Of a stretch of 64,000 nucleotides of DNA, positions 19,263-44,921 are shown one piece after another. Made by a program: the position numbers and the translations under genes. Source of the stretch: Candidatus Polarisedimenticolia bacterium (GTDB lineage Bacteria; Acidobacteriota; Polarisedimenticolia; JACPZX01; DASXTC01); NCBI GenBank assembly GCA_035281445.1, contig DATEEA010000083.1, forward strand, positions 6,625-70,624. Reading direction: 5' to 3'. The notes beneath the pieces were generated by a model. That model did no database searches. It was not told the DNA's origin and saw nothing but the letters and a program-made list of their open reading frames with translations. The stretch's first letter is position 1; every line of letters begins with the position of its first letter.

Positions 19263-19269
19263 CGAGGCC

Positions 19270-23216: not shown

Positions 23217-23255
23217 CTCCTCGATCCCCCTCGGGCGCCCTCCGGGGCGCCGATC
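23217..23255 (-). terminator. GC-rich palindromic hairpin (GGGCGCCC-tcc-GGGGCGCC) downstream of ettA, without a U-tract
   Basis: A self-complementary 7-8 bp stem sits in the 40-nt gap between the ettA stop and the start of the PD40-amidohydrolase gene. There is no T-run, so this is weak as an intrinsic terminator. Confidence 0.2.
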
Positions 23256-24935: not shown

Positions 24936-25050
24936 GGGGTCCCTTTCGGAAGGCCACAGGATAGCAGAGGGATGCGGGAGGAAGGGAGGGGCGGAGGCGC
25001 CGGATCCTATCCCCGGCGGTGCGAGGCCTCAGCGCGGGGCCGCGAGCGGA

Positions 25051-26043: not shown

Positions 26044-26214
26044 GGGACCCCCTTGCGGCCCTGACGGGCCGGTTCTTCTGGAATTGAAAGGCGCGAAGCC
26101 GGACTATTGCGAATATCCCGCGGAAGGTCCGGCCCGTCAAGGGGAAAAGAGGGCCCGGCGCGCGGTGTGCCGGATTCGGGCCGCGTCCGGGAGGTCCGGC
26201 GGCGAAGCGCCGGC

Positions 26215-29115: not shown

Positions 29116-30080
29116 CCGTCCCCCTCCCTCACCCTCGGGTCGAGGACGGCGACGGCCAGGTCCGCCGCCAGGCCGCCGGCCACCACCAGCAGAGCGGTCG
29201 CCGCGGCGCATCCCAGGATGAGCGGCTCGTCGCGCGCGAGCGCAGCCTGGTAGGCGAGCCGGCCCATCCCTGGCCACGCGAAGAGCGACTCCACCACGAC
29301 GCTGCCGCCGGCCAGGCCGGGCAGAGCGAGGCCGAGCAGTCCCGCCACCGGACGCAACGCGCCCCGCAGCGCGTGCAGGGCCACGGTGCGCCGCCGCGAC
29401 GCCCCACGCGCCCTGGCCGCCAGGGCGAACCGTCCGGTCAGGGCGTCGCCGATCTCCTCCCGCACCAGCAGCGCGATGCCGGCGGCCCCGGGCAGGGCCA
29501 GGGAGACGACCGGAAGGGCCATGTGGAGGGCGGCGTCCCACAGCCGCCAGAGAGCGGGCAGGTCGTCCGAGCCGGGCGAGTGCATCTGGGAAACGGGGAG
29601 CCAGCCCAAGCGGACGGAGAAGACGACCATGAGGATCAGTCCCGTCCAGTAGGAGGGCAGAGAGTAGGCCACCGTGAAGCCGCCGCCGAGGACGCGGTCC
29701 AGCCGTCCCCCCCGGACCCCGGCGGCGAGCGCCCCCGCCCCGATCCCGAGGGCGAACTGCGCGGCGATGGCCGCGGCCATCAAGAGGACGGTGTTGCCCG
29801 CCGCCTCTCCGATCGCCTCGGCCACCGGGCGGCGGAGAGACCACGATCGGCCCATGTCCCCCGTCGCGAGCCCCGCGGCCCAGCTCAGGAAGCGCTCGTC
29901 CGGGGGGCGATCGGCGCCCAGCGCGCGGCGGACGGCGCCTGTGTCACGGCTCAGCCCCGAGGCGGGCTCGCGCGAGAAGGGGTCGCCCGGCACGACCTGC
30001 AGGAAGCAGAACAGCAGGACCAGCGCCACTCCCAGGGCCGGAGCGGCGGCCGCGACGCGGCGGGCGAGATGCACAAGCAC
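29112..30080 (-). CDS. ABC transporter permease, DppB/OppB-like
   Basis: The conserved N-terminus is VLVHLARRVAAAAPALGVALVLLFCFLQVVPGDPFS (compare DppB MLQFILRRL...LIHLIPGDP), with a GTG start and a GGAG 6 nt upstream. The start is moved from the track ATG at 30227. Confidence 0.75.
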   Translation of the reverse strand: MLVHLARRVAAAAPALGVALVLLFCFLQVVPGDPFSREPASGLSRDTGAVRRALGADRPPDERFLSWAAGLATGDMGRSWSLRRPVAEAIGEAAGNTVLLMAAAIAAQFALGIGAGALAAGVRGGRLDRVLGGGFTVAYSLPSYWTGLILMVVFSVRLGWLPVSQMHSPGSDDLPALWRLWDAALHMALPVVSLALPGAAGIALLVREEIGDALTGRFALAARARGASRRRTVALHALRGALRPVAGLLGLALPGLAGGSVVVESLFAWPGMGRLAYQAALARDEPLILGCAAATALLVVAGGLAADLAVAVLDPRVREGDG

Positions 30081-30169
30081 GTCAGACTCCGCCCGCCGGG
30101 GGTCCGGACGGGCCGGGATTCGGATAGAATGACGGCGCGCGATTCCCTGGAACCTGCGATCCGGAAGCC

Positions 30170-31810
30170 ATGGACCGTCGCCGCGGAGGATCTCGTTTGA
30201 GCAGCCAGCGCGGCAGGCTCGCCGCATGGTGTCTCGTGGGCCTGTCGGCCGGCCTGCCGGCGGCCGCTCCGCCCTCCGCCGGCTCTCCTTCCCGGTTGAT
30301 CATCGGCGTGCGTGGCGATGTTACCTCGTTCAACGTCTACACCGCCACGAACGCCTTCTCCCAGGACGTGGCCGACCTGATCTATCCGCGCCTGGCGGGG
30401 GAGCAGGATGACTTCCTGGAGGGGCCCCCCACCTTCCGCCCCGGGCTGGCCTCTTCCTGGGCTTTCTCCCAGGACGGCCTCACGCTCACCGTGAAGCTGG
30501 ATCCCCGGGCCCGCTGGGCGGACGGGCGTCCGCTCACGTCCGAGGACGTCCTCTTCTCGCACCGCGCGGCGTCCAGCCCGGAGGTCGGCTGGGTGGGCCG
30601 GGACGTCAAGGACCGCATCGCGGAGGTGGCCGCACCCGATGCCGGCACCATCGTGTACCGCTTCCGGCAACCCTACCCCTACCAGCTCATGGACGTGGTG
30701 GACGGCAACATCCTTCCCGCGGCCGTGTTCTCGGCCATCCCCTTCGCCGAGTGGCCGGCACGGTCCTTCCGGGAGGCCCCGTCGCCCAGCGGGCCGTTCC
30801 GGCTCAAGCGGTACGAGCCCCGGTCGATCATCGAGCTGGAGCGCAACCCCGGCTATCACGTCCAGGGCCGGCCGCGCCTGGAGACGGTCGTCTTCCGCGT
30901 GATCCCCGACGAGAACACGCTCCTCAACGAGCTGCTGGCCGGGGGGATCGACATGATGGAGAACGTCCCCGCGCGAGCCGTGCAGCAGGTGGAGCGCTCG
31001 CCCCGCCTGCGCGTCGTCCGGTCCCCCGACCTCTCGTACACCTACATCTGCTGGAACACGTCCCGGCCGCTCTTCGGCGACCCGCGCGTGCGGCGCGCGC
31101 TCACCCTGGCCCTGGACCGGCAGGCCATGGTGGAGGGGCCGCTGGGAGGGGCCGGGCGCGAGGCGGTCGGCCCGGTTCTCTCGTTCCTGTGGGCGCGGCA
31201 TCCCGGATTGAAGCCGCACCCCTACGACCCGCAGGCCGCCTCCCGCCTCCTGAAGGAGGCCGGGTGGTCGGATGGCGACGGCGACGGGGTGCTGGATCGC
31301 GACGGCACGGTCTTCCGGTTCGAGCTGGAGACGAACCAGGGCTCGGGGCTGCGGTGGGAGGTCGCCCAGATGGCGTCGGCGCAGCTGCGCCGCGTGGGGA
31401 TCGAAGCCGTGGCGCGCGTCGTGGAGACCGGGGCCTTCCTGGAGAAGCACGAGCGCCATGACTTCGACGCCTTCGTCGGATCCATCCGCGAGTCCACCAA
31501 GGTGGACTTGTGGTCGGTCCTCCACAGCGCCGCGGGCGCCGGCGGGTACAACCACGGCCTGTACTCCAACGCCCGGCTCGACGCGATCATCGAGCAGGCG
31601 CGCGCCGCCTCCGACGCGGCGGCCGCGCGGGAGCTGTGGATGAAGGCGCAGGAGATCGTCCATCAGGAGCAGCCCTTCACCTTTCTGTTCGAGCCCGACC
31701 GCTTCCACGCCGTGCCACGGGCCCTCAAGGGGCCCCGGCCCAGCCCCCGCAGCGCCTACGTCGCCCTGGAGGAATGGACCTGGGAGCCCGCCTCCGGCGC
31801 CGCTCCGTGA
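30170..31810 (+). CDS. ABC transporter substrate-binding protein, family 5 (DppA/OppA-like), secreted
   Basis: A 546-aa ORF with a signal peptide (LAAWCLVGLSAGLPAAAPPSAGS) and SBP_bac_5-like architecture. It is divergent from the two permease genes. Confidence 0.8.
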   Translation: MDRRRGGSRLSSQRGRLAAWCLVGLSAGLPAAAPPSAGSPSRLIIGVRGDVTSFNVYTATNAFSQDVADLIYPRLAGEQDDFLEGPPTFRPGLASSWAFSQDGLTLTVKLDPRARWADGRPLTSEDVLFSHRAASSPEVGWVGRDVKDRIAEVAAPDAGTIVYRFRQPYPYQLMDVVDGNILPAAVFSAIPFAEWPARSFREAPSPSGPFRLKRYEPRSIIELERNPGYHVQGRPRLETVVFRVIPDENTLLNELLAGGIDMMENVPARAVQQVERSPRLRVVRSPDLSYTYICWNTSRPLFGDPRVRRALTLALDRQAMVEGPLGGAGREAVGPVLSFLWARHPGLKPHPYDPQAASRLLKEAGWSDGDGDGVLDRDGTVFRFELETNQGSGLRWEVAQMASAQLRRVGIEAVARVVETGAFLEKHERHDFDAFVGSIRESTKVDLWSVLHSAAGAGGYNHGLYSNARLDAIIEQARAASDAAAARELWMKAQEIVHQEQPFTFLFEPDRFHAVPRALKGPRPSPRSAYVALEEWTWEPASGAAP

Positions 31811-34800
31811 CCCCCGTCGTTTCCCTGATCCGGGCCAAGCTCCTCCCCCCCGCCGCCGGCCCGCGCCACCTGCGCCGCCCGCGGCTGGAAGAGCGCCTGG
31901 CGGCGGGGCTGGCCGGCAGAGCCACTCTGGTGACCGCCGGCCCCGGCTACGGCAAGAGCAGCCTGGCCGCGCGCGTCCTCAAGGAGCGAGGAGGCGACTC
32001 GGTCTGGTACCGCCTCGACCCGTTCGACCGGGATCCCTGGGTGCTGGTCCGCTACCTGATCGAAGGGATTCGCCAGCACGTTCCGGACTTCGGAGAGCGC
32101 AGCGAGAGCGTGCGGGACGCCATCCGTGCCTCGGGAGGGCCGGTGGAGCGTCTGACCGACACTCTGATCCGGGACGCGGAGGAGTCCCTCGAGGGCGGGA
32201 TGGTGATCGTGATGGACGACGTCCATCACGTCACGGGTGGAGAGTCCGAGGCGGCGTTGAGGCGGCTGCTGGCCTACCTTCCCGGCACGCTGCATCTGAT
32301 CCTGATGGGCCGCTCGCTCCCCGACCTCGGTGCCGCCTCGCTGGAGGCCGGCGCCTCGGTCCAGGCGATGAGGGGAGAGGATCTCCTGTTCACCCTGGAG
32401 GAGACGCGTCTTCTGGTGAGGGAGACCTTCGGCCTGTCCGCTCCGGAAGGGACCATCCGCAGGATCCATGAGCGGACGCGAGGCTGGATCACCGCGCTGC
32501 AGCTCCTCTGCCGGACGGTGCCGCCCGGCGGTGACCTCGACCTCCCCGAGGCGGTCTTCGCCCTGACCGAGCCGGAGATCTTCGCCTACTTCAGCGAGGA
32601 GACGCTCGCGTCGGAGGCCGAGCAGACGCGGCACCTGCTGCTGGCCGCCTCGCTGGCCTCCGCCGTCGATCCGGACATCCTTTCCGTGGTCCTTCAGGGG
32701 ACGGACGCGCGCGGGGTGCTGTCGGACCTGGCGCGGCGGAGTCTCTTCCTGTCGCCGCTGGAGAGCCGCGGCCGCCTGTACGCGCTGGATCCCCTGTTCG
32801 CCGATTTCCTGAGGGGCAAGGCCGACGAGAGGCTGGGGATGGCGGGGGTCCGCGAGCTGCACCGGCGCTACGCCAGGGCCTTCGCCGGAAGGCACGAGGC
32901 CGCGCAGTCCCTGAGACACTGGATCCTGGCCGGCGAGCCGAGGCAGGCGGCCCGGCTGCTCGCCCTGCACGGGAAGGCGATGGTGCGGGCCGGGATGCTG
33001 GGACCGGTGAGGGATGCGGCGAAGTTCGTCTCCGAGCGGGGCGAGCGCACGCCGGCCCTCGACGACGTGCTGGGGGAGGCGAGCCGTGTCTGCGGCGACT
33101 TCGCGGCCGCGGCCGGATCGTTCGAGCGGGCGCTCGCTCCTCCCTCCGGAGCGCCCTTGACGGGAGCCGCGAGGGCGGCGGCGCTTCAGGGGCTGGCCTA
33201 CTCGCTGCTGAAGCTGGGGGAGGTGGAGCGGGCCCGCCGCGCCGCGGAGGAGGCCCTGGAGTCCGCGGGCGGCCACGACGACGCGCTGCGAGCCAGGATC
33301 CTCAACACCCTCTCGCTGATCCTCTACCGCGGGGGAAGCCAGGCCGACGCCGTCGAGGGATGGCAGGAGGCGCTGCGCGCCGCCCGCAAGGCGGACGACA
33401 CGCACCTGGCCCGCATGATCGCGCACAACCTCGGACTGCCGCACGCCGTGACCGGGGACTTCGCCCGGGCCGCCGAGTGCTTCCACATCCTGATCGACCC
33501 CGACAGCGCCCGGCTGGGACCGGAGGAAGGAGCCGCCTACCTCAACCTGGCCCGGATCGAGACGCTGCTGGGGCGTCCGGAGTCCGCGGCCGCGCCGCTC
33601 GGCGACGCCCGGGAGATCGCGTGGAAATGGCGGCTCACCGGACTGAAGGGAGACATCCTGGAGGCGGAGGGAAACCTCTTGCGGGAAACGGGGGACTTCG
33701 AGGCCGCGCGAAGCAAGTACGCGGAGGCGAGGGCGCTGTTCACCGAGCTCGGCCGGCTGGATCTGCTCGACGGTCTGGCCGAAGAGGAAGCGCTGCTGGC
33801 CTCCCTTCGTGGAAGCCATGACGAGGCCGTCCGGCTGGCCGATGACTGCGTGGAGCGCCGCCGGCGGGCCGGCGACCCCGCCGGGATCGCCTCCAGCCTT
33901 CTGGTCTGCGGGAGGACGCGGCTGAACGCGCTCGACCCGGCGCGCGCGGAGCCGGCGCTGGAGGAGGCGCTGCGGCTCTTCGGCCGGACCGGCCGCGCCT
34001 ACGAGAGCTGCCTTGCCGGGATCTGGCTGTCGGCGGCTCACGGCCGCCTGGGGCGGCAGGACGCGGCCGGGCGGCGTCTGGCGGAGGCGCTGGCCCTGGC
34101 CTCGCGCTTCCGCTACGAGCCTGCCGTCCTCCGCGTGCTGGCGGCGCAGCCCGACCTGGCGCGCGCCGCGGCGTCGCTGGGGGCGGCACCGGCCTGGGCG
34201 CGGGCCGTTCCGCCGGAGGCGGAGCGGCCGGCGCGGGCTTCCCTGGGGGCCATCTCGCCGGAAGGGGCCGATCTCACGGCCAGACTGCTGGGACCGGTCG
34301 AGGTCTTCCGCGACGCCGGCGAGCGGATCCCGCCGCGGGTGTGGAAGGTGCGACGGGCCCTTCACATGTTCTGCTTCCTGGCGGCCTCCCGGGACCACCG
34401 GGCCTCCAAGGATCGGCTGGCCGACGCGCTCTGGGGGGAAGCCCGCCTGGACACCATCGAGAAGAACTTCCACCCGACCATCTCCATGTTGCGCCGGGCG
34501 CTCAACCACGGGCGCCATGTCCCCAGGCACTTCATCCTCTACGAGGGGGGCGCCTACCTGCTGAACCCGGCCTACCGGTACGACCTCGACATCGAGACGT
34601 TCGATCAGGCGCTGTCGAAGGCCCGCAAGGCGGCGGGCGAAGGAAGGATCGAGGCGGCGATCGAAGCCTACGACGCCGCCCTGGAGCTCTACCGGGGGCC
34701 CTTCATGGACGAGGAGTACGAGCCCTGGGCGGAGGCGCCGCGGGCTCACTACGAAGAGCTCCTGCTCGGCTCGCTGAGCGAGGCCGCCGCCCTGCATCTG

Positions 34801-35064
34801 AAGCTGGGAGACGCGACCGGAGCGGCCGGCCGGCTCCAGCGCCTGGTGGAGCGCGATCCCTTCGACGAGGAGGCCTCCGCGCGCCTGATGCGCGCGCTGG
34901 GGGCGGCGGGGGACAGGGCCGGAGTCCGCCGCGAGTACCGGCGACTGAGCGAGGCGCTGCGCGAGGAGCTGTCGGCCGAGCCGCTCCCCGCGACCCTCGA
35001 GGCCTGCGAGGAGGCCCTGGCGGCGGCCTCGGTATCCCTTGCGGACCGGAGGCGCAAGAGGTAG
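31774..35064 (+). CDS. Large transcriptional regulator: N-terminal P-loop ATPase, TPR repeats, and a C-terminal SARP module (OmpR-type winged helix + BTAD)
   Basis: The Walker A is LVTAGPGYGKSSLAA. The middle region is TPR-like. The C-terminal segment LLGPVEVFRDAGERIPPRVWKVRRALHMFCFLAA...DRLADALWGE...ISMLRRAL...YLLNPAYRYDLDIETFDQAL is a SARP wHTH followed by BTAD helices. The start is ATG 31774 or GTG 31807 (GTGA overlap with the SBP stop). The track start at 31510 is spurious. Confidence 0.75.
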   Translation: MDLGARLRRRSVTPVVSLIRAKLLPPAAGPRHLRRPRLEERLAAGLAGRATLVTAGPGYGKSSLAARVLKERGGDSVWYRLDPFDRDPWVLVRYLIEGIRQHVPDFGERSESVRDAIRASGGPVERLTDTLIRDAEESLEGGMVIVMDDVHHVTGGESEAALRRLLAYLPGTLHLILMGRSLPDLGAASLEAGASVQAMRGEDLLFTLEETRLLVRETFGLSAPEGTIRRIHERTRGWITALQLLCRTVPPGGDLDLPEAVFALTEPEIFAYFSEETLASEAEQTRHLLLAASLASAVDPDILSVVLQGTDARGVLSDLARRSLFLSPLESRGRLYALDPLFADFLRGKADERLGMAGVRELHRRYARAFAGRHEAAQSLRHWILAGEPRQAARLLALHGKAMVRAGMLGPVRDAAKFVSERGERTPALDDVLGEASRVCGDFAAAAGSFERALAPPSGAPLTGAARAAALQGLAYSLLKLGEVERARRAAEEALESAGGHDDALRARILNTLSLILYRGGSQADAVEGWQEALRAARKADDTHLARMIAHNLGLPHAVTGDFARAAECFHILIDPDSARLGPEEGAAYLNLARIETLLGRPESAAAPLGDAREIAWKWRLTGLKGDILEAEGNLLRETGDFEAARSKYAEARALFTELGRLDLLDGLAEEEALLASLRGSHDEAVRLADDCVERRRRAGDPAGIASSLLVCGRTRLNALDPARAEPALEEALRLFGRTGRAYESCLAGIWLSAAHGRLGRQDAAGRRLAEALALASRFRYEPAVLRVLAAQPDLARAAASLGAAPAWARAVPPEAERPARASLGAISPEGADLTARLLGPVEVFRDAGERIPPRVWKVRRALHMFCFLAASRDHRASKDRLADALWGEARLDTIEKNFHPTISMLRRALNHGRHVPRHFILYEGGAYLLNPAYRYDLDIETFDQALSKARKAAGEGRIEAAIEAYDAALELYRGPFMDEEYEPWAEAPRAHYEELLLGSLSEAAALHLKLGDATGAAGRLQRLVERDPFDEEASARLMRALGAAGDRAGVRREYRRLSEALREELSAEPLPATLEACEEALAAASVSLADRRRKR

Positions 35065-35106
35065 GCTTGGTCTCTCCGCGGATCCGACCGGAACGGGGGC
35101 TCAGCC

Positions 35107-37653
35107 ATGACGCGGGCCTTTCGGGTCATTCTTCTCCTGCTGGCCGCCTTCCCCCAGGCGCAGGCCGGCGTCTACGTCACCGAAGCCTCGGGCATCCGCT
35201 GGAACGACGTGGGCGGGATCCGGTGGAACGACGTCGGCGGGATCCGCTGGAACGACGTCGGCGGCCTGCTGGTCACGGAGGCCTCCGGCATCCGCTGGAA
35301 CGACGTGGGCGGGATCCGGTGGAACGACGTGGGAGGGATCGAGTTCATCGGCCCGGTGGGCGATCCGGTGAGCATCGATCTGGAGCTGCTCCGCCTCGTC
35401 GGGGTGCTCCCGGACTCTTCCTCCATCAACGTCATCATCACCTACCGCGGCGCTCCGGCGGCGTCCGACCTGGACGATCTCGTCTCTCTGGGGATCACCG
35501 GCGGGACGGTCTTGCGGGTCCTGCCCATGGTCGTCGTCCACGCCACGCGATCCCAGATCGACGCCATCGCCGATCTGCCCCGCGTGCGGTCGATCTACGC
35601 GAACCGGACGCTCTCCTTCTTCGATGACGCCAGCGGGGCGCGCATCGGCCTGCCCGAGCTGTCCGCCGACCTCGAGCTGCGGCCCCGCGGGACGCCGCTG
35701 ACGGGGGAGGGGGTGACCATCGCCGTTCTCGACTCGGGGGTCGATGCCGGCCACCCCGATCTTCCCTTCGGCGGGAAGGTCGTCCAGAACGTGCGGCTGG
35801 GAGGAAGCTCCGGCGGCGCCGGGTTCGTGCACCCCGCTCGCGTCGAGGGGTTGGTGAACACCGACCTCGTGCTGGGCCATGGCACGTTCGTGGCGTCGGT
35901 AGCGGCGGGGACGGGCCAGGCAGGAGGAGGGCGGTACGAGGGGGTCGCACCCGGCGCCTCGGTGCTCGGCCTGGCGGCGGGTGACCTCTTCATCCTCAAC
36001 GTGCTGGAAGGGTTCGACTACATCCTGGAGAAAGGTGAGCAGCACGGCGTCAAGGTGGTGAACTGCTCCTGGGGCACGCAGGGCTTCTTCGATCCGCATG
36101 ATCCCGTGAACATCGCGACGCGCTCGCTGCACGATGCCGGGATGACCGTGGTCTTCGCCGCCGGCAACCACGGTCCCGCCCCTGACACGCTCAACCCGTA
36201 CGCCGTCGCCCCCTGGGTGATCGGGGTCGGCTCCTCCCGCAAGGACGGCTCGCTGTCGAGGTTCTCCTCCCGCGGCCTGTTCGAGGAGCTCCTCTACCGG
36301 CCCACCCTCCTGGCGCCGGGAGAGGGGATCATCGCGGCGAAGGCATCCGGGCTGGCCGGCGTGGATGGAGTGACCGGGGTCGGGGACCCTTCTGGAGGGG
36401 TTTCCGTCCCTCCCGGCGAATCGCTCTGGTACACCGCCGCCAGCGGGACCTCCTTCGCCGCCCCGCACGTCGCCGGAGTGATCGCCCTGATGCTGGAAGC
36501 GGAGCCCGGGCTCACGCCGGGGCAGATCAAGAGGCTCCTGCAGCAGACGGCCGTGCCCTTGCTGCGGGCGGATCGATCGCAGGCCGGCGCCGGGGGACTG
36601 GACGCCTGGGCCGCCCTGGCCCTGACCCTGGACGGGGAGAGGCCGTTTGGAACCCACGTAGCGGGCTGGCTCGACCAGCGTCCGTACCGGATCGACCATC
36701 TTCCGCCGGCGCTCTCCGCGTTGACCGTGCCCGCCGGCGGCTCGGCGATCGCCGCGGCCGACGTGTCGGGGGCGGTGGCGTCCTGGCAGGCGACCATCTC
36801 CTGGAACCGGCCGCCCGGGACGGGGGACCTGGACATGCGGGCGGTGAGCGGCTCTGGAGCCGAGGTCGAGAGGTCGGACGGTTGGATCGGCCCGTCGCTG
36901 TTCGGCCGGACGGAGGGGATGCACCTGATGGCGGTCGTCCCCGAAGCGCTCCAGCTCGATGTCCACTTCAAGCAGGGAGTGGGGCCTCTGGATCAGCCGT
37001 TCGAGCTGCGGCAGCAGAAGGCGGTCGCCGCCATCACCGCCTACACCGATCTGGCGCCCTGGCCCGCCGGGGATCAGGAGGCGATCACGCGGGCCGTCAG
37101 CCGCCACGTGATGATCGGGCGCGGCTCCCGCTTCGAGCCGGCCGCGGCGCTCACCCGGGCCGAGCTGGCCAGGGCCCTGGCTCTGGCCGGCGGGGCGCCT
37201 CAGAGGATCCCTTCATCGCCTTCCTTCGCCGACGTCCCCCCGTCGGACCCCGACTTTCCCTACGTCGAATCGGCGGCCGGGCTCCGGGCGCGGGCAAGGC
37301 TGATGGACGCATCACCGTCGCGCCTGGTGAGGGTCCTTGGCGACCCGTCCGCCGGGGACGGGCCGCGCGCCCAGGCCGCCTTCGCTCCCCGCCATGCGGT
37401 GCGGCGGCTGGACTACGCGGTCGCCGTCGTCCGGGCCGCCGGCCTGGAGGCCGAGGCCCTGGCCCGGGCCGGTGAGCCTCTCGGGCTGGCGGACGAGTCC
37501 TCGATCCCCGAGGCGCTCAAGGGCTACGCCGCGGTCGCCCTGGGTCGCGGCTTCATCGAGCCGGTGGCCCTCGCGGGGGGAGAAGGCTTCGACCCGGACG
37601 GCCCGGTGTCCCGGCTGTCGGCAGCCCGGTTCCTGGTGAAGCTGCTCGATTGA
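35107..37653 (+). CDS. Secreted S8 (subtilisin-like) serine peptidase with N-terminal tandem nonapeptide repeats and an I9-like propeptide
   Basis: It has a signal peptide (MTRAFRVILLLLAAFPQAQA). The catalytic triad is present as D in AVLDSGVD, H in GHGTFVAS and S in GTSFAAPHVAGV. An I9-like inhibitor region lies before the catalytic domain. The C-terminal ~250 aa are possibly SLH-like (FADVPPSDPDFPYVESAAGL). Confidence 0.85.
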   Translation: MTRAFRVILLLLAAFPQAQAGVYVTEASGIRWNDVGGIRWNDVGGIRWNDVGGLLVTEASGIRWNDVGGIRWNDVGGIEFIGPVGDPVSIDLELLRLVGVLPDSSSINVIITYRGAPAASDLDDLVSLGITGGTVLRVLPMVVVHATRSQIDAIADLPRVRSIYANRTLSFFDDASGARIGLPELSADLELRPRGTPLTGEGVTIAVLDSGVDAGHPDLPFGGKVVQNVRLGGSSGGAGFVHPARVEGLVNTDLVLGHGTFVASVAAGTGQAGGGRYEGVAPGASVLGLAAGDLFILNVLEGFDYILEKGEQHGVKVVNCSWGTQGFFDPHDPVNIATRSLHDAGMTVVFAAGNHGPAPDTLNPYAVAPWVIGVGSSRKDGSLSRFSSRGLFEELLYRPTLLAPGEGIIAAKASGLAGVDGVTGVGDPSGGVSVPPGESLWYTAASGTSFAAPHVAGVIALMLEAEPGLTPGQIKRLLQQTAVPLLRADRSQAGAGGLDAWAALALTLDGERPFGTHVAGWLDQRPYRIDHLPPALSALTVPAGGSAIAAADVSGAVASWQATISWNRPPGTGDLDMRAVSGSGAEVERSDGWIGPSLFGRTEGMHLMAVVPEALQLDVHFKQGVGPLDQPFELRQQKAVAAITAYTDLAPWPAGDQEAITRAVSRHVMIGRGSRFEPAAALTRAELARALALAGGAPQRIPSSPSFADVPPSDPDFPYVESAAGLRARARLMDASPSRLVRVLGDPSAGDGPRAQAAFAPRHAVRRLDYAVAVVRAAGLEAEALARAGEPLGLADESSIPEALKGYAAVALGRGFIEPVALAGGEGFDPDGPVSRLSAARFLVKLLD
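35194..35337 (+). repeat. Five tandem in-frame 27-nt repeats (24-nt IRWNDVGG core plus one spacer codon each) encoding the identical peptide I-R-W-N-D-V-G-G (3 + 2 copies, separated by an LLVTEASG spacer) within the peptidase N-terminus
   Basis: The copies read atccgctggaacgacgtgggcggg / atccggtggaacgacgtcggcggg / atccgctggaacgacgtcggcggc / (spacer) / atccgctggaacgacgtgggcggg / atccggtggaacgacgtgggaggg. They differ only at synonymous third positions (cgc/cgg, gtg/gtc, ggc/ggg/gga). Confidence 0.85.
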
Positions 37654-37681: not shown

Positions 37682-38998
37682 TCAAGAGGCGTGCGGGGGC
37701 CCTTGCCGTCCAGGCGCCGCAGCGGCTGGGCAGGACGCTTCGATCTGCACGATCGGCCGCACCAGGAAGGCGGCCGCGCCCATCGCGGCGCAGACGACGC
37801 CCCCGGCCGCGTACCATGCCCGGACGCCGGCGAGGTCCGCGACGGGGGCGGCGAGAAGGAGCCCGGCGGGCGTCATGGCCGCGGCGGCGCTCATCATCAG
37901 CGTGAAGACCCGGCCCTGGTATTCGGGTGCGATGGTCGCCTGCATGATGGTCGCGATGCAGCCGTTGGCCAGGGCGGAGAAGACGCCGACGGCGAACAGG
38001 GCGAGGATCGCCAGGGGCCAGAGCCATGCCGGCGTGGCGCCAAGAGACAGGGTGGCGAGGCCGAGGCCCAGAATCGAGCCGAGGGCAGCGCGCGCCCGGC
38101 GGCCGGATCCGCCCCAGGCGCTCAGGGCGAGTCCGCCTCCGATGGCGCCCGCTCCGAAGGCCGAAGTGGCCCAGGCCTGCATGGCCACGTCTCCCTTCAT
38201 CTCCTGGAGCATCAGCAGGGGGAGCAGGGCGAAGGCCGGGACGCAGAAGAGGTTGATCACCGCGGCGCCTCCGATCAGACCGATGTGCCCCGGCAGGCCG
38301 CGCAGGTAGCGCAGGCCGCTGCCGAGGTCGGCCAGCAAGCCCGGGCTCTTCCCGGCCTCGGGCTCCCCGCGCCGCTCCGGTTCCGGCACCCGGATGAAGA
38401 GCAGCGGCGCCATGGCCAGGAGCGCCGTGGCCACGTCCACGGCCATCACCCCGGTCATCCCCACGAGGCCGAGCAGGGCCGCTCCGGCGGGGGCGGTGAG
38501 GATCCCCAGGCCACCCTGAAGCATCTGGTTCACTCCCTGGATTCGGCCCAGGTCCTGGCGGGACACCATGAGCGACGTCGCCGACAGCATGGCCGGGGCG
38601 TGGAAGGCGCCTCCGATCGCGCGCCAGAGCAGGAAACCGAGCACCGCCGTGGTGCTCGCGCCTCCGGCGAGAAAGAGACCCGCCAGGGCCAGCGACCCGA
38701 GGGCCACGGCGCCGTCGGCCGCCAGCATGGTCGCGCGGCGGCTCCACCGGTCCACCAGCGCGCCGATCGCCGGTCCGAGGACGATGGTGGGGAGCAGCGC
38801 GAACAGGGTGGCGGTGCTCAGGACGGCAGGGGAGCCGGTTTGCAGCGTCAGCCACCAGACCAGGGCGAACTGGGAGGCCTGGCTCCCCGCGAGCGAGAGG
38901 GCCTGCCCCGACCAGATGGTCCAGAACGCCCCCCTGCGCATCGGCGGATCCGCCGCGGCGCGCGTGGACGCGGTCGCCGCCTCTTCGCTTGCAGTCAT
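37682..38998 (-). CDS. MFS transporter (12-TM, EntS/macrolide-efflux-like MFS_3 type)
   Basis: The start MTASEEAATAS... follows a GGAGGAG Shine-Dalgarno. The product is ~439 aa with 12 predicted TM helices and MFS-type loops. The track ORF adds a spurious 38-aa N-terminal extension. Confidence 0.75.
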   Translation of the reverse strand: MTASEEAATASTRAAADPPMRRGAFWTIWSGQALSLAGSQASQFALVWWLTLQTGSPAVLSTATLFALLPTIVLGPAIGALVDRWSRRATMLAADGAVALGSLALAGLFLAGGASTTAVLGFLLWRAIGGAFHAPAMLSATSLMVSRQDLGRIQGVNQMLQGGLGILTAPAGAALLGLVGMTGVMAVDVATALLAMAPLLFIRVPEPERRGEPEAGKSPGLLADLGSGLRYLRGLPGHIGLIGGAAVINLFCVPAFALLPLLMLQEMKGDVAMQAWATSAFGAGAIGGGLALSAWGGSGRRARAALGSILGLGLATLSLGATPAWLWPLAILALFAVGVFSALANGCIATIMQATIAPEYQGRVFTLMMSAAAAMTPAGLLLAAPVADLAGVRAWYAAGGVVCAAMGAAAFLVRPIVQIEASCPAAAAPGRQGPPHAS

Positions 38999-39049
38999 GG
39001 CTCCTCCTCGCCGGCGGCGGGGCCGCCCCTTCATGCCGGAGGCCCGAAT

Positions 39050-39086
39050 GTCACGGCGTTCCTGATTATTCAAATCTACATGAACA
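39050..39086. promoter_or_regulatory. Low-GC divergent promoter/operator region between the MFS and ArsR genes, containing the inverted repeat ACATgaacaATGT
   Basis: An unusually AT-rich 40-nt stretch (ttcctgattattcaaatctacatgaacaatgtcaagtagtaag) lies in a 70% GC context immediately upstream of both divergent start codons. It carries a short inverted repeat of the kind ArsR-family repressors bind. Confidence 0.3.
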
Positions 39087-39782
39087 ATGTCAAGTAGTAA
39101 GATGAGCTCCATGGCGGGAAGCAGAGGACGGCCGGAGAGACGAGGCGCGCCGGCGGCATCGAAGGGGACGCCGGCGAGGGCGGGGACCGCGAAGGGTCCG
39201 GCCAGCGAGATCCACCGGCTGACGAGGCTTGATCAGATGAAGGTGCTGGCCCATCCTCTGCGGATCCGGATCCTGGAGCTCCTCTGCGAGGAACGGACCA
39301 CGAAGCAGGTGGCCGAAATCCTCGATCTGCCTCCCACCCGGCTCTACCACCACGTGGCCGCACTGGAGCGCGTGGGTCTCGTGCGGCTCGGGCGCACCCG
39401 GCAGCGCCGGGGCGCGGTGGAGAAGTACTATCAAGCCGTGGCCAAGACCTTCAGCGCCGATCCGAGGCTCTTCTCGTCCCGCGGTTCGGGGCAGGCCAGG
39501 GAGGCGGCCCAGGGCGTGGCCGCCCGGATCCTCGAGCACACCACCGCCGATCTCCTCGAGCTGCTGGAGGGAGGCGAAGGGCCGGGCACGCTGGAGCAGG
39601 AAGGGATCCTGAGCTATCTGGAGGTGCGGGGCGGCCCCGCCGAGCTGAAGACGATGCGGGCCCGGCTCATGAAGCTGATCAAGAGCTCCGCGGGGCGCGC
39701 TCCCAAGGCGGGCGCGGGGGGAGCGGCCTACCGGCTGACGATCGCGTTCTTCCCGCTGGCCCGCGGGCGCCGCTTCCGCTGA
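39087..39782 (+). CDS. ArsR-family (winged HTH, metalloregulator-type) transcriptional regulator
   Basis: The HTH_20-type segment is LAHPLRIRILELLCEERTTKQVAEILDLPPTRLYHHVAALERVGLV. It is divergent from the MFS transporter, a classic repressor-efflux pair. The start may instead be an internal ATG. Confidence 0.75.
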   Translation: MSSSKMSSMAGSRGRPERRGAPAASKGTPARAGTAKGPASEIHRLTRLDQMKVLAHPLRIRILELLCEERTTKQVAEILDLPPTRLYHHVAALERVGLVRLGRTRQRRGAVEKYYQAVAKTFSADPRLFSSRGSGQAREAAQGVAARILEHTTADLLELLEGGEGPGTLEQEGILSYLEVRGGPAELKTMRARLMKLIKSSAGRAPKAGAGGAAYRLTIAFFPLARGRRFR

Positions 39783-39846: not shown

Positions 39847-42800
39847 TCACAGGCTCCCGACGAAATTGACGAAGGCGCCCTGGTGGTCGTAGCTCAGGTC
39901 GGTCAGGTCGTCGGAGAAGTCGGTGAAGTTGTAGCCCGCTCCGACCTTGAAGTGCCTGCCGAAGCGGCGGTAGATGGCGGCCAGCGCGCCACCGCGTCTC
40001 TGTTCGAGGTCCGGCAGGTCGAGCGTGCGCACCTCCACGAGGCTCTCCCATCCCTCCAGGAACCGCCAGTCCGCGCGCAGCACCGCGAGATGCGCGGTGT
40101 TGTCGAAGAACTCGCGCTCGACGCGATCCAGGCTGACCTGCCCCATGCGGTAGGCGTACTTGCCTCCGATGGACCAGTCGGCCGTGAGGTCGTAGGTCAG
40201 GTCCAGGGCCGCGACGTGGCTCTTCTGGATGAACTCGGCGGGAGTGCCGCGGAAGGTCACCTGGTCCACGGTGGGGACATTGTAGAAGTAGGTGTACTTG
40301 GCCAGGGCGCTCAGCCGATCGTGCCGCACCGGGCGATAGGCGTAGCCGACCACCGCCTCGGTGTAGCCGCCCTCGTGGAGCTTGCCCAGGGAGCTGTCGC
40401 TCACCGAATGGTTCAGCTTGCCGACCACGCGCCCGTCCGGTGTGAGCTGGAACCGGAAGGTGTTGCGGAACAGCCACGCCGTCCTCTCGGTCACCGAGCT
40501 GTCGGCCTGCTCCGCGTCATCCTGACGGTACTCCACGGCGCTGGAGAGCTGCATCGTCTCCTGGCCGTAGCCCACGCGCACGCCGGCCGCCGTGCGGTCG
40601 GTCTCCGCGCCGGTCAGCGCGTCCCGCAGGGTGCCGGCCTCCGCGCTGGCGCCCACGTTCCACTGCTCCCGTTCCACGAGGTTGATGCCGGCGGCGTGGG
40701 TGAGGCCGGTGAGCGACGTGCCGTCCTGGTACCGCTCCTCGAGGTAGACGCTGGAGGTGTCGGACAGCCTCCTCTTCACGCCCGACACGAGGCTGCCGCG
40801 GCGGACGTTGAGGCCGTTGTCCGTCCTCTCGTTCTCCAGGGCGTAGTTCAGGTAGAGGCTGGTCCGGTCGGAGTACAGGTAGCTGCTCCCGATCCTGGCG
40901 GCCGCCCCCAGGTCCCCGCCTGAGACCTCCCCGTCGAGCCTGAAGCGCCTGGTCAGGTGATAGGAGCCGCCCGCGCCCACGCGCCCGTTTTCCTCGCGAC
41001 CCTCGCTCGACGCGACCGTCTCCTGGACGAACCCGTAGGCGCGCCAGGAGGCTCCCGGGTCGAAGGTCACCTGCGCCACCGCGTCGGTGCGGTCGCCCTG
41101 CTCCTGGGTCGGCAGGACGACAGGCGAGCGGTCCTCCCGCTCGTCGCTGCGGATCCCGGTGCTGACGCTCCAACGGTCGGTCAGCTTGTAGCCGACGTTG
41201 AGCTCCACCGCCCGCGTCTCCAGCCCCTGCTCCTCGGTCCGCTGGTCCCCCTTGGCCGCCAGGCTCAGGCGATCGGTCACGGCCATGCGGAAGGCACCGC
41301 CGATCTGCTCGGTGTCCTTGACGGCGGCCTGGCCCGGAGCCGAGTAGCCGGCCTCGATCGTCTGCGCGTAGAGGGTCAGGCGGCCGTCCTTGCCCGTGAA
41401 GAGGTCGCCGAGGCCGACGCTCACGTCGGCCCGGTAGGCACCCGCTTCGGCCTCGGTGAAGGCCGCGTCGGCCGGGCCGAAGAAGCCGAACCCGCCGTCC
41501 TGCGACCGCAGCGTGCTGGAGACCAGCCCCTCGCTGCGTCCGGTCTGCACCTTGAGCCAGGTCTGCTGGCTCATCCGCAAGGTCAGGTCGGCCGCGCCGA
41601 GGTTGCTGTCAACGTCCCCTTCTTCGTTGGAGTTGGCGGTCACTCCGAGCCGCACGTGGTCGGTGATCCAGTAGTGCCCCTGGCCGCCCACGGCCATCGC
41701 GTCCAGCTCGTCGAAGCCCGGCGTGTACTCGTAGCGCGCCACCAGATAGGCCTCGTCTCCGCTCAGGCCGCTGGTGCGCACCAGCAGGTTGTCGTCGGCG
41801 GTGGACGACAGGGGCTCGGAGAGCAGGACCCGGCCCTGGAGGTAGTCGATGTCGTAGTCCACGCCGTACCTGAGGTTCACCACCCCCGTGACGATCTGCG
41901 AGTCCTTGTCGCGCATCTCGATGCGCAGGCGCTCCGAGCCGGTCAGGATGTCCTGGTGGCGCAGGAAGTAGAGCGAGCCGCCCGTTCCCCGGAACTCCTC
42001 GTAGCTGGGCACCGTTCCGGGCTCGGCGGCGAACCCGTCCACGGCGGCGCGCCGCTCTCCGAAGTGGGTGGTGGCCTGGGACCCGTAGTGGGCGTTGGCC
42101 CCGTACAGGCCGCGGTCCACGTGGGCCAGCTCGTTGCCCAGGTACCCGACCTTGAAGTTCCCCCACATCCCGTAGTTGTCCCCGTGGCTCGCCTTGAAGT
42201 AGAACTTGCCCAGGGTGGGCGCCATCTCCTCCACCACGCTGTCGTCGCCGAAGGTGGGGTAGTGCTGGTCGGGATCGATGCGCCGGAAGAGCGCTTCGGG
42301 CGACTTGTCCAGGAAGTTGGTGAACAGGTCCTCCACCGGGCCCTCGCGGGTGTCCGCGCTGGCCGTCAGCCGCCAGCGGTCGCTGACCTTGCCGTTGACG
42401 TAGAACGCCAGCCGGCCGTCCACGGACGAATCGAGATCCTGGCGCGGGTTCTCCCCTTGCAGCGCCTCGGCCGGCCCATCGGACCGGTTCTCGGACAGGG
42501 TGAGATCGGCGATGCCGACGTAGAACAGGTCGGCGCGCTCGAACTCCAGATCGCGAAGGTAAAGGGATCCGTTGCCGGCCTCGTCCAGCACGGCCACCTC
42601 GACCGTGTGCGCGCCGGCCGGGAGGATCTCCTCCGCCGCGAAGCGGCCCTGCGGATCCACCGGGACCTGGCGGCCCGCCACCCAGACCGTGTGGCCCGCG
42701 GGGATGCCGCCGCCCTGCACCGTCACCGTCCCGCCGCCTCCCAGCGGGATCCTGTGGCGCGCCAAGTCGGCCTCGCCGTACGCGGCCAGCAGCTCGACCG

Positions 42801-44916
42801 GCGGCCCGGGCTCGGCTCCGGAGGCCTGGGCGTCGCCGGCCGAAGGCTCCCCGATCAGCCACAGCGGCCGCTCGTCGGTCTCGTCGTAGGCCCCCTGCGC
42901 GCCGTACGCGCGCAGGACGTACTTGAGCTCCCGGGCCGGCCCTTCGATGGTCCCGGCCGCCGGCACCCACTCCGCCAGGCCGTCTTCGCCCACCGGAACG
43001 ACCTCGATCGGGACGGTCTGCGCCGACTGCTCCTTGCGGAAGATCCGGATCTCGGCGCGCTGGATGAAGCCCGCATAGTTGGTGTGCATCCGGAACTGCA
43101 CCGGCGAGGCGACGGGTCCGGCTCCCTGATCGCTCACCGACACCGCCACCGGATGCGCGGCCACGCTCAGACGCGGCCTCGACTCCAGGTTGTCGAAGCG
43201 GAACCGGATGCTGGCGTCCTCCAGCGCCACGTCGGTGCAGCGCTGGACATCCGAGGAGCTGCGATCCGGGTCGTCGATCGGCTTTCCGTCCACGGTGATG
43301 CGCATCACGTTCAGCTCGTAGGGGCTCTTGGGGCGGAGCTCGCGGGTGATGCGCGTGATGTCCAGCCCCTCGAGGTCCAGCGGAGCCGGTTCGTCGTAGA
43401 CGGCCTGCACGCGCACGAACGATGTCTCCCCCTGGACGAAGCCGGCGTTGACGACGTCATCGGACTGCACGTAGCCCCGCCCCTCGTGCTCGGACCGGGC
43501 GCCCGACAGCAGCGGGTCCTGCATGACCATGTCCATGGCCCGGCGCGCCCGCGCCGCGGACAGCCCGATGTCGTCGCCGTACACCGACGCGGTGCGGCGA
43601 TCGAGGCGCTCGTTCTTGGTGTACCCGATGAACAGCAGCCGCGGGTTGGCCCGATCCGCGATCTCCGCCAGCGCGCGCTGCAGGTCCGCAGCGTAGCCGG
43701 GGGGAACGATCGGCTGGCCGGCCTCCAGCTCGATGGTGCGGAGAGGACCCCAGGGGGGATCGTAGACCTTCGCCACCAACGTCTCTTCGCTCTCGCCGGG
43801 ACAGGGCTGCGGCTCGTCGGGCAGCTCCTGCAGGGGGTCGTCGTACCAGAACTCCACCTCGACGCGGCGGTTCAGCGTCCGTCCCTGCGCCGTGTCGTTG
43901 GAGGCCAGCGGGTGCGAGGCGCCGCGTCCGTCGCTCTGGATGGCCGAGGTCGGCAGCCCCAGGGCCTCCTGCATGGCCAGGGCGACGCGCAGCGCCCGGG
44001 CCTTGGACAGGGACAGGTGCGTCCCGTAGATGCGCTCGTTGCGGCCGGTCAGCGGCGCCCCGTCGGTGTAGCCGACGAAGCGGACGATGACCCCCTGCCG
44101 GTCGCGCAGGTGGTCGAGCGCCTGCCGCACTTGCAGGGCGAAGTCCTTGGACAGGGGAGTGGTCTCGTCCTCGTAGCGCAGCGGCGCGATGAGGTTCTTC
44201 ACGCGCGTCCGGCGGGCGTGTCCCTCCTTGTACCGCATCTTGCAGACGGTCTCCATGCGGCAGACCTTGATGCGCTTGATGTCGTCGGAGACGAGGATCT
44301 CCTGCTCCTTGGGGGCCTCCCGGATCTCGTCGTACCAGACTTCCACCTCGACCCGCCGGTTGAGAGCGCGGCCTTCCTCCGTCTCGTTGGGCGCGATGGG
44401 CTGCGTGTCCCCGGCCCACTCGTATGTGATGGCTTCAGGCGGCAGCTTGAGCGAGGTTTTGAAGTGCTCGGCCACCTCGCCGGCGCGCTCCCTGGACAGA
44501 CCCGCGTTGTCTCCGAAGACGCGCGCCAGACCCTCGGACAGCCGCTGAGAATCCGCGTGCCCGACGAAGTGAAGGCGGACATTGCGGCGGTCCCGCATGG
44601 AGTCGAGGATCCTGGCCAGCTTGTCGAGGTAATCGGGCGGGATCTGGGCCACGCCCGACTGGAACCGGATGGGAGGGACCACGTTCTTGAGCTTGACCGT
44701 CTCCGGTTTTTCGCCGGCGACCTGCCGGATTTCCACCCGATCGCCCCGCTCGCTGTCCAGCCCGTTGGGATCCTGGGCCCAGACCCGGAAGCCCTGGTCG
44801 CCGGACAGATGATGCTCGGCCTGCTCTCCAGGCTTCTTCTCGCGCTCCTCGGCGGCCGCGGTGAAGGCGGAGAGGAGCAGCCCGAGCGCCAGCGAAGCGT
44901 GGCGATGCCTGCGCAT
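39847..44916 (-). CDS. Giant (~1689 aa) outer-membrane protein: signal peptide, three tandem OmpA-like peptidoglycan-binding domains, then a long beta-rich (beta-barrel-like) C-terminal region
   Basis: The start MRRHRHASLALGLLLSAFTAAA follows a GGGAGG Shine-Dalgarno, 5 nt after the upstream gene's stop. Three OmpA_C signatures are present (..NRRVEVEVWYDE, ..TLNRRVEVEFWYDD, plus a third TAS..GDDIGLSAARARRA unit). The remaining ~1100 aa are Gly/Tyr/Asp-rich with an alternating amphipathic pattern, ending ...GAFVNFVGSL. The track ORF is over-extended to 46263. Confidence 0.65.
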   Translation of the reverse strand: MRRHRHASLALGLLLSAFTAAAEEREKKPGEQAEHHLSGDQGFRVWAQDPNGLDSERGDRVEIRQVAGEKPETVKLKNVVPPIRFQSGVAQIPPDYLDKLARILDSMRDRRNVRLHFVGHADSQRLSEGLARVFGDNAGLSRERAGEVAEHFKTSLKLPPEAITYEWAGDTQPIAPNETEEGRALNRRVEVEVWYDEIREAPKEQEILVSDDIKRIKVCRMETVCKMRYKEGHARRTRVKNLIAPLRYEDETTPLSKDFALQVRQALDHLRDRQGVIVRFVGYTDGAPLTGRNERIYGTHLSLSKARALRVALAMQEALGLPTSAIQSDGRGASHPLASNDTAQGRTLNRRVEVEFWYDDPLQELPDEPQPCPGESEETLVAKVYDPPWGPLRTIELEAGQPIVPPGYAADLQRALAEIADRANPRLLFIGYTKNERLDRRTASVYGDDIGLSAARARRAMDMVMQDPLLSGARSEHEGRGYVQSDDVVNAGFVQGETSFVRVQAVYDEPAPLDLEGLDITRITRELRPKSPYELNVMRITVDGKPIDDPDRSSSDVQRCTDVALEDASIRFRFDNLESRPRLSVAAHPVAVSVSDQGAGPVASPVQFRMHTNYAGFIQRAEIRIFRKEQSAQTVPIEVVPVGEDGLAEWVPAAGTIEGPARELKYVLRAYGAQGAYDETDERPLWLIGEPSAGDAQASGAEPGPPVELLAAYGEADLARHRIPLGGGGTVTVQGGGIPAGHTVWVAGRQVPVDPQGRFAAEEILPAGAHTVEVAVLDEAGNGSLYLRDLEFERADLFYVGIADLTLSENRSDGPAEALQGENPRQDLDSSVDGRLAFYVNGKVSDRWRLTASADTREGPVEDLFTNFLDKSPEALFRRIDPDQHYPTFGDDSVVEEMAPTLGKFYFKASHGDNYGMWGNFKVGYLGNELAHVDRGLYGANAHYGSQATTHFGERRAAVDGFAAEPGTVPSYEEFRGTGGSLYFLRHQDILTGSERLRIEMRDKDSQIVTGVVNLRYGVDYDIDYLQGRVLLSEPLSSTADDNLLVRTSGLSGDEAYLVARYEYTPGFDELDAMAVGGQGHYWITDHVRLGVTANSNEEGDVDSNLGAADLTLRMSQQTWLKVQTGRSEGLVSSTLRSQDGGFGFFGPADAAFTEAEAGAYRADVSVGLGDLFTGKDGRLTLYAQTIEAGYSAPGQAAVKDTEQIGGAFRMAVTDRLSLAAKGDQRTEEQGLETRAVELNVGYKLTDRWSVSTGIRSDEREDRSPVVLPTQEQGDRTDAVAQVTFDPGASWRAYGFVQETVASSEGREENGRVGAGGSYHLTRRFRLDGEVSGGDLGAAARIGSSYLYSDRTSLYLNYALENERTDNGLNVRRGSLVSGVKRRLSDTSSVYLEERYQDGTSLTGLTHAAGINLVEREQWNVGASAEAGTLRDALTGAETDRTAAGVRVGYGQETMQLSSAVEYRQDDAEQADSSVTERTAWLFRNTFRFQLTPDGRVVGKLNHSVSDSSLGKLHEGGYTEAVVGYAYRPVRHDRLSALAKYTYFYNVPTVDQVTFRGTPAEFIQKSHVAALDLTYDLTADWSIGGKYAYRMGQVSLDRVEREFFDNTAHLAVLRADWRFLEGWESLVEVRTLDLPDLEQRRGGALAAIYRRFGRHFKVGAGYNFTDFSDDLTDLSYDHQGAFVNFVGSL

Positions 44917-44921
44917 GCCGC

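Follow-up and report, generated by a model that had tools for sequence, protein, structure and literature searches.

The subtilase gene and its octad array

The stretch of DNA examined here (the window) comprises 64,000 nucleotides of contig DATEEA010000083.1 from a Candidatus Polarisedimenticolia bacterium. It contains a gene for a secreted S8 subtilase in which an array of eight-residue repeats, five of them identical copies of IRWNDVGG, lies between the signal peptide and an I9-like prodomain. The features of this gene and of the genes before it are listed in Table 1. In this sequence of 71% GC, the distribution of GC over codon positions marks the open reading frame (ORF) at 35107-37653 as a genuine gene, and by the same criterion a minus-strand ORF overlapping it, at 35101-37107, was rejected as spurious. 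A GenBank entry named 'S8 family serine peptidase [Candidatus Polarisedimenticolia bacterium]' matches the protein at 100% identity. Its sequence assigns it to peptidase family S8, with the catalytic triad Asp-His-Ser in order and an oxyanion Asn; these residues, D209, H258, N354 and S449, are invariant across 84 homologues and subtilases in the PDB match the protein at 3e-43.

Table 1. Positions in the window of the subtilase gene, its parts and the genes upstream of it.
Feature	Position	Strand	Residues	Remarks
Second permease, in ORF	28174-29844	-		
ABC permease (BPD_transp_1)	29112-30227	-		Pfam match; divergent from the solute-binding protein gene
SBP_bac_5 protein	30170-31810	+		Family-5 (peptide or nickel type) periplasmic solute-binding protein; Pfam 7e-81
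Regulator	31771-35064	+		MalT-like STAND ATPase, TPR sensor, winged helix, C-terminal BTAD (SARP-type)
S8 subtilase gene	35107-37653	+	848 aa	ATG at 35107
Sec-type signal peptide, MTRAFRVILLLLAAFPQAQA	35107-35166	+	1-20	Cleavage predicted between AQA and G, read by eye from the translation
Complete octad array	35167-35358	+	21-84	Eight contiguous in-phase 8-aa units; G-first register
Canonical block 1, IRWNDVGG x3	35194-35265	+	30-53	I-first register; wobble-only differences
Spacer unit LLVTEASG	35266-35289	+	54-61	
Canonical block 2, IRWNDVGG x2	35290-35337	+	62-77	
Rest of pro-region	35359-35703	+	85-199	Helix 92-100, then I9-like fold 106-165
Peptidase_S8 catalytic domain	35704-36555	+	200-483	Pfam PF00082, 7.2e-41
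Beta-sandwich domain	36685-37035	+	527-643	Strands in the AlphaFold2 model
C-terminal S-layer homology (SLH) region and stop codon	37042-37653	+	646-848	

Tandem Repeats Finder detected 6.3 copies of a 24-nucleotide period at 35189-35340 (score 165). A period of 24 nucleotides corresponds to eight amino acids, and the unit is thus an octapeptide and not the nonapeptide named in an initial annotation of this DNA. The same annotation was exact in placing the five copies at 35194-35337, where three copies of IRWNDVGG, one LLVTEASG and two further copies of IRWNDVGG are encoded, from the ATC at 35194 that opens the first copy to the GGG that closes the fifth at 35337; it was equally exact in the codons at which the copies differ. 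The full array is larger than these five copies. Read in the G-first register it runs GVYVTEAS, GIRWNDVG three times, GLLVTEAS, GIRWNDVG twice and GIEFIGPV, and the first of these eight octads begins directly after the predicted signal peptidase site. The translation shows the units abutting one another, with no KR or RR between them and no spacer other than the one conserved octad.

No description of such an array was found. Searches of Pfam and NCBIfam gave nothing over the array at E<=1, for the window protein and for seven distant array-bearing homologues. Sequence and profile searches of the PDB with the array returned nothing but chance matches at E<=10. The motif strings of the array occur in no paper, and keyword searches of the literature combining subtilase, propeptide and repeats gave nothing relevant. 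A profile of the octads run against a large protein database returned only short fragments of the leader-plus-array type, so no second protein context was found. The view that no described subtilase carries such a cassette therefore stands as far as Pfam, NCBIfam, the PDB and the literature are concerned, but the cassette is not a singularity of this gene; it is a feature of a whole family.

Array-bearing homologues

Homology searches found about 150 other subtilases with the array, in Acidobacteriota metagenome-assembled genomes (MAGs; Polarisedimenticolia and Blastocatellia). All 47 matches to the N-terminal 219 residues carry it, as do the roughly 120 best full-length matches. In every array-bearing homologue the signal peptide ends in an AxA-G junction and the first octad follows at once. 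The commonest architecture, five units, a conserved spacer and two units, is found in 94 of the ~150, and the 3+2 form of the window in seven. In the I-first register variation is conservative at position 1 (I, L, V or M), position 4 (N, S, D or T) and position 6 (V, T, A, L or P), while R, D, GG and W (or F, in one clade) hardly change. In many homologues a single array combines three to five variants of the unit, as in P0004. No clear signal of a 16-residue (two-unit) super-period was seen in the IRW-type arrays, in which the identity between units is 0.39 at lag 2, 0.33 at lag 1 and 0.31 at lag 3.

An exhaustive search for representatives showed that relatives at 35-45% identity have arrays at the same position built of different units. 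These are GVTFTGAS (P0166, P0168), GVVLTGAD or GVVLTGAE (P0172, P0167), GIAFTGAD (P0174), GITATGTD (P0175), GTTFGEAG (P0176), GITFSTAN (P0171) and GLT[AVIM]TGAD (P0178, P0197). Degenerate units keep the eight-residue phase, with G at position 1, position 2 aliphatic and position 4 hydrophobic (G-first), and across lineages G is in phase 0 in 8-19 units per array. In the long arrays, of 200-300 residues, there are also conserved inserts that are not repeats, among them ..SVVLRQPQ and GRVFSIAPS. From position and pattern in the aligned proteins, the IRW arrays are judged homologous to the arrays with other units down to ~35% identity. The first unit of the window, GVYVTEAS, and its spacer unit, GLLVTEAS, are conserved (homologues have LLFTDASG or TLFTDASG at the spacer) and resemble the canonical unit found in distant lineages, for instance GVTFTGAS and GVVLTGAD, which suggests that IRWNDVGG is a derived and expanded variant. 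Other relatives at a similar distance lack an array and begin directly with the prodomain; the array is thus an accessory module of one subfamily.

All of these sequences come from metagenome assemblies. A large share of P0001-P0047 and P0313-P0326 are fragments that end in or just past the array at the ends of contigs. Since the repeat breaks short-read assemblies, copy numbers taken from MAGs need caution, and assembly collapse may have affected them, the 3+2 of the window included. With that qualification, the proposed comparison of copy number between relatives gives mostly the 5+2 form.

One sequence, P0047 (locus L011, 1872-2648), has a leader and array of the identical type joined to an EEP (endonuclease/exonuclease/phosphatase) domain. 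It was rejected as evidence for a portable module, because the gene occupies the usual slot of the protease downstream of the regulator and its EEP domain consists of the C-terminal half alone. The contig is more likely to be chimeric or to have been rearranged at the repeat.

Selection on the units

The five canonical copies in the window differ only at CGC/CGG, GTG/GTC, GGC/GGA and GGG/GGC, that is by at least four synonymous and no non-synonymous events, counted in units where synonymous sites are only 5.3 of 24 (~22%). When five related loci were added to the window the minimum numbers rose to 40 synonymous and 8 non-synonymous events. Across 80 homologues the canonical units are 89% identical to those of the window and are the best-conserved segment of the protein; the corresponding values are 70% for the catalytic domain, 58% for the prodomain, 54% for the SLH region and 26% for the signal peptide. 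In the distant arrays, units with identical amino acids share only 76-88% of their nucleotides, and the DNA identity of units within one genome equals that between genomes. The synonymous sites must therefore be saturated, and for this reason no positional orthology of units between genomes was detectable and recent gene conversion cannot explain the identity of the units. The initial annotation had argued for selection on the peptide as opposed to a recent duplication of the DNA, and both the synonymous-only differences in the window and the saturated divergence in distant relatives bear this out. These alignments show that the array is under strong, position-specific purifying selection. Tandem units that stay constant in amino acids over saturating synonymous divergence make an unusually clean case.

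Locus L009 (3283-5883) encodes nine GVVLTGAD units identical in amino acids, of which units 3-4 and 7-8 are also identical in DNA. This points to a recent segmental duplication of 96 nucleotides (four units) on a synonymously saturated background, and shows how the arrays turn over.

Two explanations are affected directly by these data. A function of the repeats at the level of DNA, for example as direct-repeat sites for the SARP regulator encoded upstream, was rejected because the repeats lie inside the coding sequence, ~85-230 nt past the ATG, and because their variation is confined to wobble positions and leaves the peptide unchanged. The second is a flexible low-complexity linker without function, removed with or after the signal peptide. 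Low AlphaFold2 confidence, a Gly-rich composition and the lack of any family match are what such a linker would give. Set against these are the fixed architecture, the strong purifying selection and the rank of the units as the most conserved segment of the protein, which show that the array is no drifting linker. The variable low-complexity sequence expected in orthologues of a linker is clearly not what the 80 homologues show. A functionless linker is contradicted by the conservation data; the sequence comparison effectively excludes it and we regard it as very improbable.

Predicted structure and the nature of the array

An AlphaFold2 model of the window protein built from an 84-sequence alignment had a mean predicted local distance difference test score (pLDDT) of 81.5 and was confident for most of the protein. 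The prodomain, residues 106-165, was predicted as beta-alpha-beta-beta-alpha-beta with pLDDT 80-94. It has no Pfam Inhibitor_I9 match at E<=0.01, and its best Foldseek match is the ProN-Tk-SP structure 3afg. The predicted fold is consistent with the earlier placing of the repeats between the signal peptide and an I9-like propeptide, and the Pfam assignment of the catalytic domain confirms an S8 subtilase. The beta-sandwich region gives weak matches to PPC (pre-peptidase C-terminal) in homologues, mostly below the curated cutoff. The SLH region matches Pfam PF00395 at residues 646-688 (2.9e-8, above the gathering cutoff), is found in many homologues and was predicted as helical with pLDDT above 90; it is probably a cell-wall anchor.

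Within the array, the short strands of the window model fall only on the IRWN segments. A single-sequence AlphaFold2 model of the distant homologue P0175 was poor overall (mean pLDDT 37), with the array as its best-scoring part at pLDDT 50-59 and one five-residue strand in every eight residues. Our preferred reading, held tentatively, is that the array is an undescribed domain with one beta-strand per octad, which lengthens the pro-region in a zymogen anchored to the wall and would be discarded at activation. The IRWNDVGG copies would be the form taken in one lineage by an old octad-repeat domain with the pattern G, aliphatic, x, hydrophobic or aromatic, x, G or D, x, x, each unit probably forming a short strand followed by a tight Gly turn. 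The domain would start at the first residue left by signal peptidase, ahead of the I9-like prodomain, in a Tk-SP/AprX-like subtilase with a C-terminal SLH anchor. It may extend the pro-region as a beta-rich, folded segment, perhaps a cross-beta meander or a beta-helix dependent on self-association, and would leave the enzyme together with the prodomain at autoactivation. The unit sequence would be replaced now and then by expansion of one variant and then frozen by selection.

Since the array is N-terminal to the prodomain it is expected in the zymogen only, and this favours a part in latency, docking or self-association. Most probably the array would govern where the latent enzyme resides or which state it is in; the inhibitory prodomain might be stabilised or docked, for instance, or zymogens might be oligomerised at the envelope. 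A store of diffusible signal is less likely. A role of this kind in the zymogen is itself put forward tentatively.

Several observations count against a folded domain of this kind. The array of the window protein (residues 16-85) reached a pLDDT of only 31-48 with the 84-sequence alignment, so a stable monomeric fold is unsupported by the model, and no solved structure or curated family in the PDB, Pfam or NCBIfam matches the array by sequence. R and W, on the two putative faces of the strand, are conserved beyond the needs of a scaffold, which suggests that something reads the whole unit. The phase kept by degenerate units could have been inherited through indel-free duplication without being imposed by a fold. 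The role in latency, docking or oligomerisation is one that we infer.

Another candidate is a known repeat fold, either a Ca2+-binding beta-roll of the repeats-in-toxin (RTX) kind or a trimeric beta-helix like that of gp5/VgrG. The array shares with the RTX beta-roll (GGxGxDxUx) a Gly-Gly plus Asp composition, a short tandem unit and a secreted protein as its setting. However, its period is 8 and not 9, and GIRWNDVG contains no GGxGxD, so the array is not an RTX repeat; further, GVTFTGAS-type units in some lineages have no acidic residue. The triple-stranded beta-helix of T4 gp5 and VgrG is built of octapeptide VxGxxxxx repeats (PMC3004832), and the array has the same eight-residue period with a fixed Gly at a turn position, which is the signature of the gp5 helix, and one predicted short strand per unit. 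An obligate trimer would also account for the failure of AlphaFold2 with the monomer. There is nevertheless no sequence relationship: of the gp5 consensus (a=G, b=N/D, g=V, h=polar; PMC3004832) only G is matched, and V in one register. Against the PDB the octad profile found neither gp5 nor VgrG at E<=10, nor any other chain beyond chance matches, and the Pfam scans gave no match to Gp5_C. The gp5 repeats are degenerate and lie at the C-terminus of a structural spike protein, and the array was compared as a single chain. We consider a fold of either known kind quite improbable.

The place of the array ahead of the inhibitory prodomain, and its extended or poorly folded state in the AlphaFold2 model, would also suit a pseudo-substrate fuse. 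The units would then be preferred cleavage sites chewed first, delaying degradation of the prodomain and so timing activation. A hydrophobic position is conserved in every unit type, and tight conservation of sequence is expected of a segment that fits a conserved active-site cleft. Subtilisins prefer a P4/P1 spacing (i, i+3), though, and the hydrophobic residues of the array, at i and i+2, suit a beta-strand better. The invariance of R, D and GG would be left unexplained, and a fuse is thought improbable.

Genomic neighbourhood and the possibility of a peptide store

The gene directly upstream, on the same strand, had been described as an ATPase-TPR-SARP regulator, and an ORF with ATPase, TPR and BTAD domains is indeed present there, its stop at 35064 leaving 42 nt to the protease ATG at 35107. 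The longest form of this ORF begins at 31510 but the likely start is an ATG near 31771, overlapping the end of the solute-binding protein gene; the ~87 extra N-terminal codons of the longer form overlap that gene and are probably untranslated. The regulator matches MalT (NF003420, 188 bits, below the cutoff) and models for BTAD and AfsR-type proteins. In AfsR-type large SARPs the SARP module is N-terminal, so the domain order in the window regulator is reversed.

A regulator lies immediately upstream of the protease in all 16 informative loci of the same type. Among 12 distant array-bearing loci it is adjacent in six and nearby in two. It was not found at four GVVLTGAD-type loci with perfect arrays, where only 1.0-3.2 kb upstream was available, and was not seen beside eight array-less relatives, several of them on short contigs. 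Shared ancestry is a confounder of the link between regulator and array, and several of the absence calls rest on short flanks. The solute-binding protein gene precedes the regulator in 8/9 same-type loci with enough flank and is probably the first gene of an operon with the regulator and protease genes; an SBP_bac_5 gene also lies beside P0168. The divergent permease arrangement is conserved in loci L002, L003 and L012.

The three genes at 30170-37653 (+) form a conserved same-strand block, in which the first two overlap, and the block is shared with loci L002, L003, L012, L018, L021, L022, L024 and L035. It looks like an operon for product-induced proteolysis and peptide uptake.

A neighbourhood of this kind can be read in another way, which the initial annotation had raised in likening the repeats to precursors of pheromones or of RiPPs, peptides made by ribosomes and modified after translation. 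The array would be a polyprotein autoinducer fused to its own processing protease. Cleavage of the discarded pro-region, for instance behind W, F or L, would yield an octapeptide such as NDVGGIRW in 5-7 copies, the family-5 binding protein and the ABC permeases would import the peptide, and on binding the TPR sensor of the adjacent MalT/SARP regulator it would switch on the operon. The identity of the copies across saturated synonymous divergence, the difference in units between lineages and the invariance of residues on both putative strand faces are consistent with this, as are the linkage of the regulator to array-bearing loci, the binding protein gene in the operon and the lack of a confident fold for the array in AlphaFold2. 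Position 4 (G-first) is always a residue that, we presume, subtilisins accept at P1.

Against this reading, there are no spacers and no dibasic or recognition sites between the units, and unmodified linear peptides are, to our knowledge, not an established means of signalling in diderm bacteria. Phylogeny confounds the joint occurrence of regulator and array, as noted above, and the regulator is of the MalT-type STAND/SARP kind and not RRNPP. No RiPP-type maturase was found by Pfam in the likely coding ORFs within ~20 kb on either side (~15-57 kb of the window), where the ORFs encode transporters, regulators, peptidases and surface proteins, and none was found in related loci either. The suggestion of a pheromone or RiPP precursor thus received no direct support. 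Copy number and architecture are largely fixed, the first and spacer units are conserved and are not decaying, many homologues hold three to five different units in one array, long arrays keep conserved non-repeat inserts, and the GVVLTGAD clade keeps its arrays although no regulator was found on the flanks available. These points, along with the hydrophobic pattern that keeps its phase over deep divergence and the strand-per-octad prediction for P0175, fit a beta-repeat domain better than a peptide store. We consider an embedded autoinducer unlikely. Its fullest version is a positive-feedback or quorum circuit, coupled to a protease and self-reporting, in a phylum of diderm bacteria, in which each activated zymogen would release 5-7 identical unmodified octapeptides to be re-imported and sensed by the TPR domain, with IRWNDVGG, IRFNDAGG, GVTFTGAS, GITATGTD and others as lineage-specific 'pherotypes'. 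This we think distinctly unlikely.

The wider neighbourhood is rich in genes of peptide catabolism. The region 18114-27900 contains genes for peptide and amino-acid catabolism and uptake, including a DUF1028 protein (18114-19337, -), a fusion of PD40, DPPIV-N and amidohydrolase domains (19896-23216, -) and an AbgT-family transporter (26215-27900, -). Downstream of the protease, at 37682-39782, a gene for an MFS transporter (-) and one for an ArsR-family HTH protein (+) are divergent, and the stop codons of the former and of the S8 gene, which converge, are only 28 nt apart. On the minus strand, at 39093-39065, there is a sigma-70-like promoter close to the consensus, TTGACA-17-AATAAT (11/12 matches). 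Further on, the minus-strand ORFs 39847-46263 (2138 aa with an OmpA domain) and 44922-50195 (1757 aa with DUF11, SdrD-B and CarboxypepD_reg repeats) overlap by 1.3 kb in different frames, which reflects either a spurious 5' extension of the first or a frameshift in one giant surface-protein gene.

Two related loci show other settings for proteases of this family. Locus L017 (3132-8457) has two tandem array-less S8 paralogues, one with a faint SLH match, within a type II secretion gene cluster (GspG-like pseudopilins, GspK, PilN, GspM and secretin) beside a sigma-54 activator, which suggests that the wider protease family is cargo of the type II secretion system. In locus L007 (2840-9581) an array-bearing S8 protease, a SurA/PrsA-like peptidyl-prolyl isomerase and an array-less S8-SLH paralogue are encoded in a row, a layout that recalls the lactococcal pairing of the maturase PrtM with the protease PrtP.

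Significance and comparison with known systems

The textbook subtilase zymogen consists of a signal peptide, an I9 prodomain and a catalytic domain. To this the present analysis adds an extra N-terminal module that is widespread, strongly selected, absent from the databases and literature searched, and in most lineages accompanied by a dedicated STAND/SARP regulator. Should the module be structural, as we tentatively prefer, it would be a beta-repeat fold of short period that is new, and would add a level to the control of zymogens in bacteria that abound in soil and sediment. Were it a peptide store, it would be the first autoinducer embedded in a protease and would extend peptide signalling to Acidobacteria.

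In the yeast alpha-factor precursor and in fungal Kex2-processed repeat proteins, tandem identical peptides are released by a protease of the S8 family. The array too consists of tandem identical copies under peptide-level selection. The precursors of the yeast and fungal systems, however, are separate small proteins with dibasic or spacer sites, whereas here the copies abut and lie within the protease itself.

Extracellular subtilases mature the signal in the RRNPP systems (Rap/Phr, NprR/NprX and PlcR/PapR). The gene arrangement in the window is similar in that a gene for a TPR regulator directly precedes the gene for a Sec-exported putative source of peptide, with an oligopeptide-type binding protein nearby. 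The regulator differs in being a MalT-type STAND ATPase with SARP output, the 'precursor' is an enzyme of 848 aa and not a pro-peptide of ~40-60 aa, and the host is a diderm acidobacterium.

The fused burpitide cyclases also place repeated short cores, some of them Trp octapeptides, at the N-terminus of the processing enzyme, KjaBURP having four N-terminal QLLVWRGH cores (PMC11253845). These are copper-dependent BURP cyclases of plants that make macrocycles (PMC11253845), and in the window there is no BURP domain or other modifying enzyme.

The nearest relative of known structure is Tk-SP of Thermococcus kodakarensis (PDB 3afg, 9ues), which is the closest solved structure both by phmmer on PDB sequences (5e-43) and by Foldseek (1.6e-36), and many of the homologues are named 'serine protease AprX' by JGI. 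Neither Tk-SP nor AprX is known to us to have an array of octads ahead of its prodomain or an SLH region at its C-terminus. The jelly-roll of Tk-SP is taken by us to be the counterpart of the beta-sandwich of the window protein, and a core of S8 domain and beta-sandwich, preceded by an inhibitory prodomain that in the window protein is predicted, is common to Tk-SP, the AprX-type proteases and the array-bearing subtilase described here.

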